From assembly GCF_053078305.1 (NCBI RefSeq), contig NZ_CP166879.1: 64,000 nucleotides of DNA; one strand, 5' to 3'. Under the pieces are notes generated by a model, which saw nothing but the letters and a program-made list of their open reading frames with translations, was not told where the DNA came from and did no database searches. This document shows positions 22,111-64,000 of this stretch, in pieces. The stretch's first letter is position 1; each line of letters begins with the position of its first letter. Both the position numbers and the translations under genes were made by a program.

Positions 22111-23384
22111 TTAACTTCCCCTTGTGTCAACGCAATATTGCGATCATCGACCTTGATAGCCGTAATTTCGTTGTCGGATTCGCGGAAAAAAATCATGAAC
22201 AGCACGGCGATAATGGCAATCATCACCGCGCCAAAAGTCCACATCCCGGACCAGTTGAAAGTCAGTCCGTTTACCGGTTCCTGATAAGCGAACATCTTTT
22301 CCATCATCACACCGCCAAGACGATAGCCGAGCAAACTGCCGAAGCCCTGGCAGCAGAGCGTGATCAGCCCCTGCGCGGCGGTACGCATATGCACGGGGGC
22401 TTTTTTATCGACATAGATGTAAGCGGTAACGTAGTAAAAATCGTAACTTACGCCGTGAAGCAAAATACCGAGGAACAGTAACGCGTAGGTGAAATATTCA
22501 TCCGCACTACCGTAAATAAAGAAGCCATAGCGGATCGCAGCAGTGATCAGACCAAGCAATAATACCTTTTTGATACCAAAGCGTTTAGTGAAAAACGGCA
22601 ATGCCAGCATAAAGAAGATTTCAGAGAACTGGCCGAGCGTCATCCAGCCGGTGGCGTTTTTCATGCCAACTTCGGTCAGATAACCGTTGGCAAAGATGTA
22701 ATAGAACGCCAGTGGCATCGCAAACAGGAATGAACAGAAGAAAAAGACGAGGAAGTTTTTATCGCGCAGCAGGATCAGCGCATCCAGGCCGAGCATGACT
22801 TTAATGTCCATTTTGCCGGTGCTTTTTGGTGGCGTGTCGGGCAGGAAAAACGCAAACACACCGAGCAGAGCAGAACTTCCGGCGGTAATCAGCAGCGGGA
22901 TGTTAGTCGGTGAGATATCGGCATACCCCAGCATTTGCGGCAAGAAACCACATGCCAGACCGGAGGCAATCCAGCCGATAGTGCCCATCACACGAATGCG
23001 CGGGAAATCACGCTCCACATCCGGCACGTTGGCAAAAGCGATACTGTTAGTCAGCGCAATGGTCGGCATATAGGTTAGCGAGTAGGCCAGCAGTAACGGG
23101 AAGAACCCGGCAAAAGTGGTCTGTTGCGCAGCGAAATACATCAGCAGCGCGCCTGCGAACATCAATACCGCCAGCACTTTTTGCGCCGAGAAAAAGCGGT
23201 CAGTGATGGAGCCAACCAGAATTGGCGACAGGATCGCCGCAATGGCTGTGCAGGCATACGACCAGCCAATTTCTCCGGCACTAAAACCGCTTTTACTTAA
23301 CCACAACCACAATGGCACAAACCACGCGCCCCAGATAAACCATTCAACAAACATCATGAACGACAGCTTTGCTGTTGTTTTCAT
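22107..23384 (-). CDS. yegT: MFS nucleoside transporter-like permease
   Basis: 425-aa polytopic membrane protein. Confidence 0.85.
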   Translation of the reverse strand: MKTTAKLSFMMFVEWFIWGAWFVPLWLWLSKSGFSAGEIGWSYACTAIAAILSPILVGSITDRFFSAQKVLAVLMFAGALLMYFAAQQTTFAGFFPLLLAYSLTYMPTIALTNSIAFANVPDVERDFPRIRVMGTIGWIASGLACGFLPQMLGYADISPTNIPLLITAGSSALLGVFAFFLPDTPPKSTGKMDIKVMLGLDALILLRDKNFLVFFFCSFLFAMPLAFYYIFANGYLTEVGMKNATGWMTLGQFSEIFFMLALPFFTKRFGIKKVLLLGLITAAIRYGFFIYGSADEYFTYALLFLGILLHGVSYDFYYVTAYIYVDKKAPVHMRTAAQGLITLCCQGFGSLLGYRLGGVMMEKMFAYQEPVNGLTFNWSGMWTFGAVMIAIIAVLFMIFFRESDNEITAIKVDDRNIALTQGEVK

Positions 23385-36783: not shown

Positions 36784-38183
36784 ACTTCTCTCTGTAAATC
36801 CCGTTCCAGCGGTAACTCTACTGTAATGCTTACCCCGCCAAAAGGCGAATGGGCGGCAATAATGCGGCCATTATGTGCTTCAACAATGTTCAGGCAAATC
36901 GCCAGCCCCAGCCCGGAACCGCCGCTGGCACGGTTGCGGGAACCTTCGGTGCGATAAAAACGTTCAAACAATTTTTGTAGCTGATCGTCACTGACACCTG
37001 GCGCACTGTCGGCAAAGGTCAGGCGCACCGTTTTGTCGTGCTGCTCGGCAGAGATTTTCAGGCTGCCGCCGCTGTCAGTGTAGCGCAGGCTGTTTTCCAG
37101 TAAGTTATTGAACAACTGCATTAAACGGTCGCGATCGCCAAATACGGTAATACTGTCTGGCAGGGAAAATTGCAGTTTCAGGCCACGGCTGGCGAATCGT
37201 TCGCGAAATGCGCCGCCCGCCACTTCCAGCAGTGGGATCAAATCTACCGGTGCTTTTTGATAGGCGAGAGCGCCTTCATCAGACATCGACAACTGATGAA
37301 GATCGTCAACCAGTTTGGTCAGTGTACCGACCTCCGCCTGTAAAGACGCCACCGTCTCCGGCGTGAATTTACGCACGCCATCCTGAATGGCTTCCAGTTC
37401 ACCGCGCAGCACCGCTAATGGCGTACGCAGTTCGTGAGAAATATCGGCCATAAAATCGCGCCGCATTTGCTGGTTTTTCTCCAGCGTGCTGGCGAGCTGG
37501 TTGAAGTCTTGCGCCAGTTTGCCCAGTTCATCTTCACTGGTGGGCGTTACGCGGGTAGTGAAATCGCCCGCCGCCAGTTTGTGCGTGCCGTCTACCAGCC
37601 GTTTGACCGGGGCCAAAAGACCACGCGCCAGCAGAAAGGTGGCGAGCGCCGCGAGTAACGTTGCCAGGGCGACAATCAGCCAGCTGGTTTGCCGTTGTTG
37701 TTTATCGAAATTGATATCAGTATTGCGGGTCAGCCGCTCAACGGGGGAGGCAATCACCGCGCCCACTTCCGCACCGTTGACCAGAATGGGTCGCCGTGTA
37801 CCGTCAGGTGGAATCGGCGCTCGCGGACCAACCAGCACCTTGTTGTTTTGATCAACCACCCAGAACTGAGTACGCCAGCCGTGTGGTGGCATACCCGGGC
37901 CGGGTTTATCTTCCGAATTATCGTGTTCAAATGAACGCAGGATCTGAAAGACAAAGCGATCATTGTTGCGCAGGAAGCGCCAGTTGCCATGCTGCGCATA
38001 CTGCTCGCCAAGCGCATCACTTAACAGTTGTAATCGCTGTTCATTACCATGCTTGATGTAATCAATAAAGCCACGCTCAAAACTGATACGCACCGCCCAG
38101 TGCATACTGATCAGCAAGACAATGCAGGTGGCGAAAATCGCCAGAAACAGTTTGCCGGTAATACCGGGTCGCCAGAACTTCAT
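36780..38183 (-). CDS. baeS: Envelope-stress sensor histidine kinase
   Basis: 467 aa with an H-box (ISHELRTPL) and an ATPase domain; 4-bp overlap with baeR. Confidence 0.95.
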
Positions 38184-39595
38184 TGCGCGCTCCTTTTTCG
38201 CCGCGAAATAGCTACATTTTGATGCGTATCGTTCGGCACTCTGGCAAAGATGAACGCCGGAAGGGCGATGATAAACGCCATGCTAAGCCAGGTGTACATA
38301 AAGACGGTTTGTGTGGTGCCGCTGTCGACGCTGACATGCTGCGAACCAAAAAGTCCCAGCAACAGCCCGGCGATGGTGACGCCGATACTCATCGACAATT
38401 GCATAATCATCGACAGCAGACTGTTGCCGCTGCTCGCCAGGTTGTCCGGGAGATCTTTCAGCGTCAGGGTGTTCATGGAGGAGAAACGGGTCGAGTTGAC
38501 CATCCCTTGTAAAAACAGGACGAACGGCAAAACGTAGTACCAGCCCAGCAGCGCGGTGGTCATAAACAACAGGCTGACCAGCGACAGGCCCAGCGTGGTC
38601 GCCACCAGTACCCGACGATAACCAAAGCGATTCACTACCTGCACCACAATCCGCTTCATTCCCATGCTGCCGAGCACCATCGGGATCATCATCAGTCCGG
38701 CATGAAACGGCGAGAAACCGAGGCCAATTTGCAGGAACACCGGCGTCATAAAGGGCAACATGCCGCTGCCGATACGTCCGGCAAAACTCCCCGCCAGACC
38801 CAGCGAAAAGGTACGAGTACGGAACAGTTTCAAACTGAACAGGGCGCGGTTGTTGTTTCTGGCGTGCAGCAGATAAAGCGCAATGGCTACCACGCCCACC
38901 GCGACCAGTCCTGCGATTGCCAGCGTCGGTAAGCCCGTACCTTTACTGCCATCCAGCGCCAGGGTTAATACCGCCATGCCAACCGCCAGCAATAAAAAAC
39001 CTGAGAGATCGAAGCGCCGCGTCTGCATGGTGTAGTTCGGCATTAACATCAATGTGGCGATCGCACCAATAATTCCCACCGGAATGTTGATCAAAAAGAT
39101 CCAGTGCCACGACGCGTACTCCACCAGCAGGCCGCCGAGCGCCGGACCGAGCAGCGGACCGACCTGACCGGGTAACGTGACAAAGGTCATCGCCGCCATA
39201 TATTGCTCGCGCGGTACGATTTTCATCACCGTAAGCCTTCCGACCGGCACCATCATCGCACCGCCAACGCCCTGTAACGCGCGTGCCAGCAACAGTTCGT
39301 TCAGCGTGCCGGAAAGCGCGCAAAACAATGAACCGAGAGTAAACAGCACGATGGCGGTAAAGAAAATATTGCGCACGCCGACCTTGTCCGCCAGCCAGCC
39401 GCTGGCGGGCAGCATCACCGCCACGGTCAGCACATAAGAGACAATGACCATGTGCATATGCAACGGACTTTCCCCGAGGCTTTGCGCCATTGAGGGAAGG
39501 GCGGTGTTTACGATGGTGGTGTCCAGCGACTGCATAAAGAAGCCGAAAGCCACAATCCACAATTGCCAGCGGGTGCTGTCAGGAAGATCTGTCAT
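38180..39595 (-). CDS. mdtD: MFS efflux transporter
   Basis: 471 aa; last transporter gene of the mdtABCD–baeSR operon. Confidence 0.93.
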
Positions 39596-59031: not shown

Positions 59032-60885
59032 ATGAGACGATTTCTGACGACGCTGATGATACTCCTGGTCGTGCTGGTGGCCGGGTTATCTGCGTTAGTG
59101 TTGCTGGTGAATCCGAATGATTTCCGCGACTATATGGTCAAGCAAGTTGCTGCACGTAGCGGTTATCAATTGCAGCTCGACGGGCCACTGCGTTGGCACG
59201 TCTGGCCGCAGCTTAGTATCCTCTCCGGGCGAATGTCTCTCACCGCCCAGGGCGCGAGCCAGCCACTGGTTCGCGCCGACAACATGCGCCTGGACGTGGC
59301 GCTTTTACCACTACTGAGTCATCAACTGAGCGTTAAGCAGGTGATGCTAAAAGGGGCAGTGATCCAACTGACGCCGCAGACGGAAGCGGTGCGCAGTGAA
59401 GACGCTCCGGTTGCACCGCGCGACAATACCTTGCCGGATCTGTCAGACGATCGCGGATGGTCGTTTGATATATCCAGTCTTAAGGTGGCGGACAGCGTTC
59501 TGGTGTTCCAGCATGAAGATGACGAGCAGGTGACAATCCGCAATATCCGCCTGCAAATGGAACAAGATCCCCAACATCGTGGCTCATTTGAGTTTTCCGG
59601 GCGGGTTAATCGCGATCAGCGCGATCTCACGATATCCCTTAACGGTACGGTAGATGCTTCTGATTATCCGCATGATTTAACGGCGGCTATTGAACAAATT
59701 AACTGGCAGTTGCAGGGTGCAGATTTACCAAAACAAGGTATTCAGGGGCAGGGGAGTTTCCAGGCCCAGTGGCAGGAGTCACATAAACGCCTTTCATTTA
59801 ACCAAATTAGTTTGACCGCCAATGATAGTACGCTGAGCGGGCAAGCACAGGTCACGCTGACAGAGAAACCGGAATGGCAGCTGAGACTGCAATTCCCGCA
59901 ACTGAATCTTGACAACCTCATCCCGCTTAATGAAACCGCGAATGGTGAAAACGGTGCCGCGCAGCAGGGGCAGAGCCAATCAACGTTGCCGCGCCCGGTC
60001 ATTTCTTCGCGTATTGATGAACCGGCCTATCAGGGACTGCAAGGCTTTACGGCTGATATTTTGTTGCAGGCCAGTAACGTGCGCTGGCGCGGAATGAATT
60101 TTACAGATGTTGCCACGCAAATGACCAACAAGTCGGGTTTGCTGGAAATTACTCAACTGCAGGGCAAACTTAACGGTGGACAGGTTTCACTGCCGGGCAC
60201 GCTGGACGCGACATCAATAAATCCGCGGATAAACTTCCAGCCACGGCTGGAAAACGTTGAGATTGGTACCATTCTGAAGGCGTTTAACTATCCGATTTCG
60301 TTGACCGGAAAGATGTCACTGGCTGGTGATTTCTCCGGTGCTGACATAGATGCCGACGCATTCCGCCACAACTGGCAAGGACAGGCACATGTCGAAATGA
60401 CCGACACGCGCATGGAAGGGATGAACTTCCAGCAGATGATTCAGCAAGCGGTAGAACGTAATGGTGGTGATGTGAAGGCCGCTGAAAACTTCGATAACGT
60501 AACGCGTCTTGACCGCTTTACCACCGATTTGACGTTGAAGGATGGCGTCGTGACGTTAAACGACATGCAAGGTCAATCGCCTGTGCTGGCGCTGACAGGG
60601 GAAGGCATGTTGAATCTGGCAGATCAAACCTGCGACACCCAGTTTGATATTCGGGTCGTGGGTGGCTGGAACGGGGAAAGCAAACTGATTGATTTCCTCA
60701 AAGAAACGCCAGTACCGCTGCGGGTTTATGGCAACTGGCAGCAACTCAATTACAGTCTGCAAGTGGATCAGTTACTGCGCAAACATCTACAGGACGAAGC
60801 GAAACGTCGCCTGAATGACTGGGCCGAGCGGAATAAAGATTCCCGCAATGGCAAAGATGTGAAGAAGTTGCTGGAGAAGATGTAG
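59032..60885 (+). CDS. asmA: Outer-membrane assembly protein AsmA
   Basis: 617 aa with an N-terminal membrane anchor. Confidence 0.9.
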   Translation: MRRFLTTLMILLVVLVAGLSALVLLVNPNDFRDYMVKQVAARSGYQLQLDGPLRWHVWPQLSILSGRMSLTAQGASQPLVRADNMRLDVALLPLLSHQLSVKQVMLKGAVIQLTPQTEAVRSEDAPVAPRDNTLPDLSDDRGWSFDISSLKVADSVLVFQHEDDEQVTIRNIRLQMEQDPQHRGSFEFSGRVNRDQRDLTISLNGTVDASDYPHDLTAAIEQINWQLQGADLPKQGIQGQGSFQAQWQESHKRLSFNQISLTANDSTLSGQAQVTLTEKPEWQLRLQFPQLNLDNLIPLNETANGENGAAQQGQSQSTLPRPVISSRIDEPAYQGLQGFTADILLQASNVRWRGMNFTDVATQMTNKSGLLEITQLQGKLNGGQVSLPGTLDATSINPRINFQPRLENVEIGTILKAFNYPISLTGKMSLAGDFSGADIDADAFRHNWQGQAHVEMTDTRMEGMNFQQMIQQAVERNGGDVKAAENFDNVTRLDRFTTDLTLKDGVVTLNDMQGQSPVLALTGEGMLNLADQTCDTQFDIRVVGGWNGESKLIDFLKETPVPLRVYGNWQQLNYSLQVDQLLRKHLQDEAKRRLNDWAERNKDSRNGKDVKKLLEKM

Positions 60886-60902
60886 GTTACCAGGTGACCT
60901 GT

Positions 60903-60945
60903 CCTGTAGGCCTGATAAGACGCGTAAAGCGTCGCATCAGGCGTT
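60903..60945. repeat. REP element
   Basis: gcctgataagacgcgtaaagcgtcgcatcaggc palindrome. Confidence 0.55.
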
Positions 60946-61335
60946 CGCGGCGGCACCATTATATTCTGAATATGTAAGATCGAAGGCTGTTCCGTTCACT
61001 TGATGTTCCTCACTACTATGGAACGCTCAAGCCGGTGAACGTGCCAGGGTGGCTCAATCGCCACCACCCTGGCAACCCGGGCTCCCGGCGGTAAATCGCC
61101 GCTGGCGCGGTTCCCTCATCTTATTCCTTTCGGCTATCGGGTATGGGCGCGAGGTAACATCCCTGTAAAACGCGCCCTCAGCCCACATCCATGTGGGCTG
61201 CCCCGGCCTACAGGAAACGATTCGGCGATTTACAGCCGGACCCACCCCCCGCTGTAATGTCCATGTACCACAGACAACGCTTCATTGCTGAAGTTATAAG
61301 GCGTTACGCAGCATCGGGTAAAATGACCGATACCA

Positions 61336-62337
61336 TCACACCTCGTACTCCATCTCGCCATCCTTACGCAGCGGTATAATCTGCACCTTCTGCACGCGAT
61401 GGCTTTCTACCTGCAACGTTTTAAGCAAATAATCCCCCACCTGAACTTCTTCGCCAGGTTTTGGAATACGCTGCAAATATTCCATCAACAGCCCGGCAAT
61501 GGTGTGATATTCACGTTTTTCATCCAGCGGCAGCGGCACATATTGCACCAGATCCTCCAGCGGCATATGACCATTCGCCGTCCAGGAACCGTCCGCATTC
61601 TTCTGAATATCATGGCGGGCGTCGATCTCTTCCACTTCGTTCGGTAAGTTACCGGCAATGGTTTCAGTGACGTCACTTAATGTCACAATCCCTTCCACCG
61701 AGCCAAACTCATCCACCACAAAAGCAAAGTGCGTGCGGGCATTACGGAACTGCTCCAGGGCAGGTAACAACGGCAAGGTTTCCGGGAACACCAGCGGCTG
61801 GCGAATCAACACCCGCAGGTTGAGCGGTTCGCCACGCAGAGACTGTTGTAGCAGGTCGATAACGTGAACAACACCGAGCAAATCTTCTGCGTCATCGCCA
61901 TCAGTAACCACCAGCCGCGTATGCTGATTTCGCTCCAGTAACTGGCGGATCTCGTCTTCCGGCGCGTTGAGATCGATATGCTCAATATCGTGGCGCGACG
62001 TCATAATGCTGCTGACGGTACGCTGGTTAAGATTAAGTACCCGCTCAATCATCCGCCGTTCCTGCGGATTAAAGATCTGCTGGTTACCATGATCCACCAG
62101 CATGGACGCGGTTTCGGCGTCCAGTTCCGCATCTTCTTTTTGCCCGCTAAGCAGGCGCATTACCGCTTCGGTAGTCCGCTGGCGCAGCGTCTGGTTAGCG
62201 GAAAGAAAACGTCGCCGGTTAAAGATAGCCAACTGATTGAGCGCCTCGATCATCACCGAGAAACCAATAGCAGCGTACAGGTAGCCTTTCGGAATGACGA
62301 ATATAGCGCGGCGATTTTTTTGATACCGATTTGCATT
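61336..62337 (-). pseudogene. yegH: yegH-like CBS/CorC-domain membrane protein, 5'-truncated: C-terminal ~330 codons present, N-terminal membrane domain missing
   Basis: The frame continues upstream of the GTG at 62256 (...FVIPKGYLYAAIGFSVMIEALNQ...) but hits a TGA at 62338-62340 and then diverges into AT-rich DNA. As I recall, full-length YegH has an N-terminal TerC-like membrane domain of about 200 aa that is absent here. Confidence 0.6.
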
Positions 62338-62429
62338 TCATTTGATACCGCTGAAAAACGCCGATACGCAACTTATTTGATACTAAATCGGCGCTTTTCT
62401 TTTGAGTTTTAGAATGAGTTTTTAAGCGC

Positions 62430-63167
62430 TCATTCACTCTCTTTCAAACCAGTTTTAACTGTTTGTGGTTTTGGGTAAGGCTGGACTTTGAATAGCTTTG
62501 TGTTGAGGCGTTTTCTGGCCCTCTTGTTCAGAAACCGGATGTAACGAAACTGTCGGAACTTATGCACACTGGCTCTGTCGATATTAGCCCTCAGATGTTC
62601 ACCTCGTTGTCCGCCTCGTTTAATGGCATTCCTGCAAATCTCGTGATACCACTCGCCATCAAGTTCATAGAATGTTGATTCATGGCTGCCTACATAATCA
62701 AAATTGCTTGCCTGATACACGACACCAAGACAGCCACAACGCTCATCTGCAAACGACTGAACCCACTGTACCTGCGGATAAAGATGCCTGATTAGCTTGA
62801 GCGCGTAACTGATTGCCCTTGATTCGGAGTTTCTCGGCATACAGTCATGCATCCATAGCCGGTTAAGCTCCATATATTCTCGGTTCTGCGTACCCGTTAC
62901 GACGCGTGCACCACTGTTTGGGTTAAGGGCGTAACCCCATTGCATTACGCCAACAAGTTCCCGTTCTGAAAATATACCCAGATGAAGGTAGGAATTATTT
63001 ACGAAACGGTGGCTGTAATGTTTATTGACGATAACCAGTCTGGCCAGCCAGCAACTTATTGTCTCAACCCGCAACTCACGGGAGCCATAACCAACGATAT
63101 TGTCGTTATAGCGAATAAGTTCAGGCGTGCTGATGATTCGGGATGTGACTTGCTTTCTGTTCCCCAC
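62430..63167 (-). CDS. Mom-like DNA modification protein (putative adenine-modifying acyltransferase)
   Basis: 245-aa ORF directly downstream of, and overlapping, the com-like gene, as in phage Mu com–mom. Assigned by context; I could not verify Mom sequence similarity. Confidence 0.5.
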
Positions 63168-63321
63168 GACAGGATTTCCTTGTGTATGTGGGGTGCTCTG
63201 TGGCGCTCGGAGATGTGATTTGATTGAGGGTTTTACAGCGCGGACATTTTACTTCCAGATAACTGAAACTGGCCCGTGCCAGTAGCTTATTGCAGTGTCG
63301 GCACCGTATGTTTCGATACAT
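63121..63321 (-). CDS. Com-like zinc-finger translational activator
   Basis: [30 protein letters not shown] closely parallels the Mu Com zinc finger as I recall it (IRCKNCNKLLFKADSFDHIEIRCPRCK). Start taken at the internal Met of an 81-aa track ORF. Confidence 0.7.
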
Positions 63322-63361
63322 GGCCGCATAACCTCCTGCTTTGTTGTTGATGTCTTTCTCA

Positions 63362-63510
63362 TGCAATCGATCGACAAAAACGATCGATTCGATTTGTTTA
63401 ATTGATACAACAAATAGATTGAAAAGTCATCAATAATGATTCAGGGAGGTGATTATTTACTTAAAGAAAACGAAGAGTTAGGTGGTGAAAATGATCATAA
63501 AATGATCATT
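63362..63510. promoter_or_regulatory. GATC-rich region upstream of com/mom (candidate Dam-methylation-dependent promoter control)
   Basis: Four GATC sites within ~140 bp (63369, 63382, 63493, 63504), arranged as palindromes tcgatcga / cgatcg and an inverted pair tgatca-taaaa-tgatca. Confidence 0.5.
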
Positions 63511-63730
63511 TTATTGACTTTTTATACAGTGAAGGTAGGATCGCGCGTATATGTAGTATGTTTCAAATCAATGGGATACTACATACATAAAGGGCGACCC
63601 AGATAGCGCGAACTATTCTGGGCCGATTTAGACAATTTTGCATCAATGCTTTACTTCGAGCTCGTGGCGTATCCTATGATATTCCCCGGTCTCCTGTAAA
63701 GCAGAGATGCATAAAAAGGAGATCTTTATC

Positions 63731-63901
63731 ATGGATAAAGAGCCTGTTTGCCCTGCCTGTAAGACTCCCTTACAGCTCATCTATCGCCGTTCTCGATCTC
63801 AAAATGGCAAGACATACAAACCAAAAAATGCTTCCTGTTTCAGGATGCTGATATGTCCTGCCTGTTCTCCCCGGAGGGAAAATACACAAAACGTGCATTA
63901 A
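63731..63901 (+). CDS. Small zinc-ribbon protein (two CPAC motifs)
   Basis: Strong RBS aaggag 10 nt upstream of the ATG at 63731; translation MDKEPVCPACKTPLQLIYRRSRSQNGKTYKPKNASCFRMLICPACSPRREN. Confidence 0.4.
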   Translation: MDKEPVCPACKTPLQLIYRRSRSQNGKTYKPKNASCFRMLICPACSPRRENTQNVH

Positions 63902-64000
63902 CAAATTCACCCGGCAGGGAAACCTGCCGGTCGGTATTGTTACATCATAGTACCGTCAGTTCCGGGCTGAACCGGCTCTGGTTGCTCTACGGGTTGAGGC

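Follow-up and report, generated by a model that had tools for sequence, protein, structure and literature searches.

What has truncated yegH at this locus, and where has the missing part of the gene gone? The window, meaning the whole stretch of 64,000 nucleotides that was analyzed, contains a yegH frame that an earlier note had described as cut off at its 5' end by an element bearing com and mom. The window shows the 3' half of yegH alone, located beside the mom end of a phage. The position of the break, the identity of the phage and the way in which it likely arrived are addressed in turn.

Truncation of yegH

Comparison by blastn with the wza-yegH-asmA-dcd-udk region of K-12 yields two collinear blocks, the second of which (61316-62301) matches the 3' part of K-12 yegH at 99.1% identity. 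Host homology ends to the base at 62301, setting the breakpoint between 62301 and 62302, inside the interval of 62290-62305 that the earlier note had estimated from the translation. Up to the break both sequences read ...GGAATGACGAA; K-12 then continues with GCCGAAACC and the window with TATAGCGCGG. This separates codon 206 from codon 207 without splitting either. The remaining 3' fragment, yegH', occupies 61336-62301 on the minus strand and comprises codons 207-527 with the stop codon TGA at 61336-61338. The earlier note had also proposed an alignment with intact yegH of K-12 (b2063), which shows 618 nt to be missing, corresponding to codons 1-206. The fragment retains the synteny of b2063, being convergent with asmA and beside asmA-dcd-udk, and yegH 5' sequence is absent anywhere in the 64-kb window. 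The encoded protein is identical to YegH residues 207-527 at 320 of 321 positions (99.7%, BLASTP). Because the fragment differs from K-12 at just 9 nt in 966 nt and carries no frameshift, the insertion is recent or the fragment is still undecayed.

Read from its end at 61336, the minus-strand frame stays open as far as an in-frame TGA at 62338-62340, in agreement with the first reading of the frame as truncated at its 5' end, and spans 333 codons. The earliest potential start codon in this frame is GTG at 62256, and ATG at 62253 comes next. Between 62256 and the in-frame TGA lie 27 codons, as counted previously, but 15 of these are genuine YegH residues (207-221), and only the other 12 (NANRYQKNRRAI) stem from the phage end. 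By translation, these twelve phage-terminus codons together with the TGA occupy 62302-62340 on the minus strand.

Consequences for YegH

Intact YegH of K-12 has 527 aa, with a TerC domain (PF03741) at residues 14-203 followed by CBS and CorC_HlyC domains (Pfam). Pfam searches of the 333-codon frame recover CBS (57 bits) and CorC_HlyC (80 bits) and no TerC (PF03741). All six strongly hydrophobic segments of YegH fall in the missing part and the whole of TerC is gone with codons 1-206, matching the expectation that the N-terminal membrane domain is not present upstream. The description of the frame as encoding only CBS and CorC regions holds for the Pfam domains but overlooks a moderately hydrophobic stretch at the start of the retained part (residues about 214-232, Kyte-Doolittle peak 1.47). 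This stretch may be the last membrane helix of YegH. Proteins of the YegH / MgpA (YoaE) family are located in the inner membrane and combine TerC with a CBS pair and CorC. The fragment in the window shares the CBS and CorC_HlyC domains and the synteny but is without the TerC membrane domain, and is a gene fragment rather than a functional member of the family. Its domain make-up resembles soluble CorC, which consists of a CBS pair and CorC (PMC12421838), by an accident of truncation only.

The gene yegH is inactivated, and any remaining product must be non-functional as a membrane protein because the whole TerC domain is lost. In Salmonella, a yegH deletion was without phenotype under the cation stresses tested (PMC12421838). 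Since asmA, the neighboring gene on the 3' side, is convergent, the insertion should exert no polar effect. The fragment and mom point the same way, and mom is a late, tightly controlled gene. Simple scans of the minus strand from the end of mom (stop codon at 62430) to yegH' found no terminator-like and no promoter-like site. Any transcription of yegH' would have to come by read-through from mom, which the shared orientation and the lack of a terminator-like site in these scans would permit. In late phage development, such read-through could conceivably yield a 305-aa product that begins with M223. That this product would matter is speculation and very unlikely. For annotation, yegH in this genome is a pseudogene split by a prophage, with the boundary between 62301 and 62302, and a CorC-like protein is not an appropriate annotation for the 306-codon open reading frame.

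Origin of the foreign DNA

The mom-proximal terminus of a phage, beginning at 62302, is joined to the middle of yegH. The DNA from 62302 to 64000 belongs to an Sp18-type Mu-like transposable prophage, whose right (mom) end it forms; the window end cuts the prophage off, and the left-to-right order of the phage runs on the minus strand. These 1,699 bp match positions 37059-38755 of 38755 in Sp18 of O157:H7 Sakai at 97.8% identity, to the last base, so that the two share the terminus. GC content is 44% in the phage part versus 53% in the host flank. Many complete E. coli genomes, mostly of Shiga-toxin-producing and O157:H7 strains, carry DNA with 98-99% identity to this segment, and these relatives are prophages of ~38.9 kb at many different sites. 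The same terminus adjoins yfcC, gabP, meaB, wzzB, siiEA, dotU, sorM or an IS66-family element in different genomes, with sorM being the site of Sp18 in Sakai. The flanks of independent insertions are mutually unrelated and each insertion starts with the same TATAGCGCGGCG. Insertion of this phage type at many unrelated sites is transposition and not site-specific integration.

The whole element is available in strain 380-94 as a 38.9-kb prophage with genes for a repressor, a Ner-like protein, a Mu-type transposase, an AAA ATPase, Gam and Mor, followed by lysis, head and tail genes, an invertase, com and mom. RefSeq also annotates a 'tRNA-OTHER' in the head-gene region of this prophage (22973-23052 of that locus). 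Pfam assigns Mu-transpos_C and HTH_Tnp_Mu_1 to the A protein of Sakai Sp18, and Phage-MuB_C together with an AAA domain to its B protein; the corresponding genes of the phage at yegH would be located beyond the window. A megablast search of 62280-64000 against 50,697 phage records returned only annotated Mu-like inserts in two Stx phages, and no nucleotide similarity to Mu, D108 or SfMu. Sp18 was described as a seemingly intact Mu-like prophage without excision as a circle (PMC2669165). Sp18-like phages of Shiga-toxin-producing E. coli are known from variable, strain-specific sites, a new one per strain, often inside genes and including sites within other prophages (PMC7430833, PMC10132054). 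The phage at yegH shows the same behavior and adds to the cases in which Sp18-type Mu-like phages disrupt chromosomal genes at random.

The modification gene mom (62430-63167, minus strand) encodes an apparently intact DNA adenine modification enzyme of 245 aa (Pfam Mom PF25680, 257 bits), with its stop codon 129 bp from the phage terminus. The protein shares 79.5% amino acid identity with Mom of Mu and differs from Sakai ECs_4998 by three amino acids. The start of mom is overlapped by com (63121-63321, minus strand), encoding the 66-aa zinc-ribbon activator of mom translation (Pfam Zn_ribbon_Com, 46 bits). This Com is identical to Sakai ECs_4997, and an identical protein is annotated in RefSeq. 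As in the window, com and mom are the last genes before the right end of Mu (Muvirus mu). Immediately upstream of com, the palindrome AATCGATCGACAAAAACGATCGATT (63365-63389) has a perfect 9-bp stem and contains two GATC sites (63369 and 63382), and may recall the Dam-methylation/OxyR control region of Mu mom. On the plus strand at 63436-63901, alignment to Sakai identifies a homologue of the hypothetical protein ECs_4996. The Sakai protein has 154 aa with C-terminal CxxC...CxxC motifs. Small indels break the homologue in the window into open reading frames of 56 aa and 64 aa, and according to RefSeq the gene is frameshifted in most relatives too. Coordinate transfer from a collinear annotated relative assigns 63940-64000 on the minus strand to the 3' end of a phage DUF826 gene that runs past the edge of the window.

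Phage termini and target duplication

The phage ends were defined by comparing six independent insertions read at both junctions together with Sakai Sp18 (n=7). In the orientation of the window, the phage sequence common to these insertions starts with TATAGCGCGGCG and its far end finishes with ...CACCTGGTTACA. In phage orientation, the seven insertions have the ends 5'-TGTAACC...GCGCTATA-3'. The repressor end thus has the canonical TG, and the mom-end terminus of Sp18-type phages finishes in ...TATA-3' (TA). Placing the left phage end at ...GAAGTATA was rejected as three genomes share sequence past that point, and the true end is ...CCTGGTTACA. A 4-bp direct repeat flanks all seven insertions (TGAA, CGTG, TGAC, GGTG, GTTA, AGCA and TAAA). 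When four duplicated bases are assumed, the reconstructed empty sites are 100% identical to intact siiEA and wzzB in hundreds of genomes. The alternative of five duplicated bases, as in Mu, fails in 380-94, OkiPb01696, 13E0780 and Sakai; the fifth duplicated base matches only where the target happens to carry A. By analogy to these relatives, the bases duplicated at yegH are expected to be CGAA, the four target bases that adjoin the phage end (62298-62301); they would represent one copy of the predicted target-site duplication.

The right terminus, 5'-TATAGCGCGGCG..., contains three direct TTTGATAC(C/T) repeats on the plus strand (62302-62392). The copies of TTTGATAC at 62319, 62341 and 62376 lie within 65 bp, compared to a chance expectation of ~2 per 64-kb window, and correspond to the repeated tttgatac motifs noticed earlier in AT-rich sequence. 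The first repeat is about 18-19 bp from the tip, the second 22 bp further and the third 35 bp beyond the second, for positions of about 19, 41 and 76 nt from the right tip. The left tip of the relatives has matching repeats at about 19, 114 and 166, and a TTTGATACC repeat is found at both phage ends, starting about 18 bp from the tip. Because their position and spacing mirror the ends of Mu, we read the TTTGATAC repeats as putative transposase-binding sites R1, R2 and R3. Mu carries R1-R2-R3 on the right and L1...L2-L3 on the left. Like the Sp18-type ends, those of Mu have sites equidistant from both tips, a right-end pair spaced by 22 bp and a spaced left-end set. The repeats themselves differ, with CGAAA-containing sites in Mu versus TTTGATACCG in Sp18-type phages.

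Mu is bounded by 5'-TG...CA-3' termini and generates a 5-bp target duplication. Unlike Mu, with CA at the right terminus and five duplicated bases, Sp18-type phages have TA and four duplicated bases in the seven relatives. By this comparison, we consider it reasonably probable that Sp18-type transposition differs from that of Mu by using a 4-bp rather than a 5-bp stagger and a mom end of TA rather than CA. The 4-bp duplication, a mild surprise, and the TA mom end are the sole departure from the textbook, with seven insertions elsewhere as the basis. No paper on a 4-bp duplication in Mu-like phages of E. coli was found in an incomplete coverage of the literature, and the 4-bp stagger and TA end of Sp18-type phages may be already known or implicit in genome annotations. 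If true, a widespread phage of Shiga-toxin-producing E. coli would provide a natural variant for target stagger and for the terminal-dinucleotide requirement in Mu-type transpososomes. With the exact terminus and the 4-bp rule, other insertions of Sp18-type phages can also be delimited to the base.

Probable simple insertion within yegH and alternative explanations

We suggest that an Sp18-type Mu-like phage of about 38.8 kb very probably integrated by transposition within yegH, between codons 206 and 207. The relatives of this phage have MuA- and MuB-type proteins, as does Mu. As inferred from them, a MuA-like transposase would bind the TTTGATAC repeats at both ends, where the transpososome would form, and a MuB-like ATPase would deliver the target. 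The terminal 3'-A of each phage end would then be joined to target phosphates staggered by 4 bp, and gap repair would duplicate CGAA. The rest of the prophage would lie past the window end, and CGAA with the 5' 618 nt of yegH would come next, ~38.8 kb rightward of 62302. The predicted left junction reads ...CCTGGTTACA, then CGAA, then GCCGAAACC. Under a simple insertion, a further ~37.1 kb collinear with Sp18 would run up to ...TCACCTGGTTACA, with CGAAGCCGAAACCTTCTGCC from the 5' part of yegH directly after it and then wza. By analogy to the relatives, the prophage is expected to be complete and the 5' half of yegH to be present past the right edge of the window. The earlier interpretation as the insertion junction of a com/mom-bearing element is supported, except that the N-terminal domain was most likely displaced by the insertion and not replaced. 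A known mobile phage acting by a known mechanism on a gene of minor known importance makes this an ordinary gene knockout of an already known kind.

The yegH site is rarely affected in E. coli. Uninterrupted yegH spans the site in 5,415 of 5,426 complete genomes, and megablast of 61000-64000 found this yegH-phage junction in none of the 5,426; Sp18 occupies sorM in Sakai, whereas yegH is occupied in 0 of these complete genomes. An exact 31-mer spanning the junction had no match in GTDB representative genomes. Therefore, the insertion is a private or rare allele of a common phage. Exact-protein look-ups returned no record of the 306-aa product (GTG start) and did return the 305-aa product (ATG start, M223). 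Among the matches listed, six assemblies with the 305-aa product have a split yegH with no adjoining prophage, and an upstream gene with a TerC match is on record in four of those six listed assemblies. At least one split-yegH assembly is a long-read assembly of NCTC type in which many neighboring genes are split too. Splits of yegH without a prophage in public assemblies are probably indel errors. The predicted 208-aa product of the 5' fragment was tried as a marker and set aside, being identical to native YegH residues 1-208, with GTC and GTG both encoding Val. Matches to this 208-aa fragment are contigs ending in native yegH and are uninformative.

The records of the 305-aa product bear on the idea that yegH is naturally short in this lineage, starting near 62256 without any insertion, given that the M223 product is called as a gene in some assemblies. 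Yet a TerC-encoding fragment lies immediately upstream in those assemblies, so the gene there is frameshifted and not short. Furthermore, the DNA upstream in the window is phage, and the continuity across the site in the 5,415 genomes excludes a natural YegH start near 62256-62337, leaving this account a close to negligible probability. The absence of the junction from all 5,426 complete genomes could also point to an artefact, either an assembly chimera or host DNA packaged beside the end of a Mu-type virion, since such virions carry host DNA at their ends (PMC5977238). However, the E. coli chromosome runs collinearly for more than 62 kb to the left of the junction, far above virion content, and the join is exactly at the independently defined phage terminus, where a random chimera would not place it. 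An artefact is hence highly improbable.

Events other than a simple insertion could have produced a genuine junction. Mu-type replicative transposition generates adjacent deletions and inversions. Such transposition, or recombination between prophages, could have caused a deletion or inversion or left a right-end remnant, with the 5' half of yegH lost or located elsewhere. The window stops 1.7 kb into the element with the other side beyond it, and some genomes contain several copies of the Sp18-type phage (PMC10132054), which gives such rearrangements some room. In contrast, the seven relatives with both junctions read are all simple insertions flanked by identical 4-bp repeats, and the right end in the window is intact to the last base with mom and com intact. 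A rearrangement, although the main rival, is therefore an unlikely origin of the junction, and a simple insertion by transposition remains our preferred explanation.

Repeats beside the fragment

The surroundings of the fragment contain additional small elements. The asmA-yegH spacer includes 172 bp absent from K-12 (61144-61315), an unannotated small dispersed repeat. Full-length copies of the repeat occur in 1,501 of 5,426 complete E. coli genomes, and the median number of places per genome is 2. In the region 60800-64000, all Rfam matches were below threshold. One of these, to the TwoAYGGAY RNA (61092-61235, minus strand; 27 bits versus a gathering threshold of 43), overlaps the 172-bp repeat. 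Just after asmA, a REP-type palindromic element at 60909-60981 (minus strand) has a sub-threshold match to the Rfam family naRNA4 (33 bits versus a gathering threshold of 59.5).
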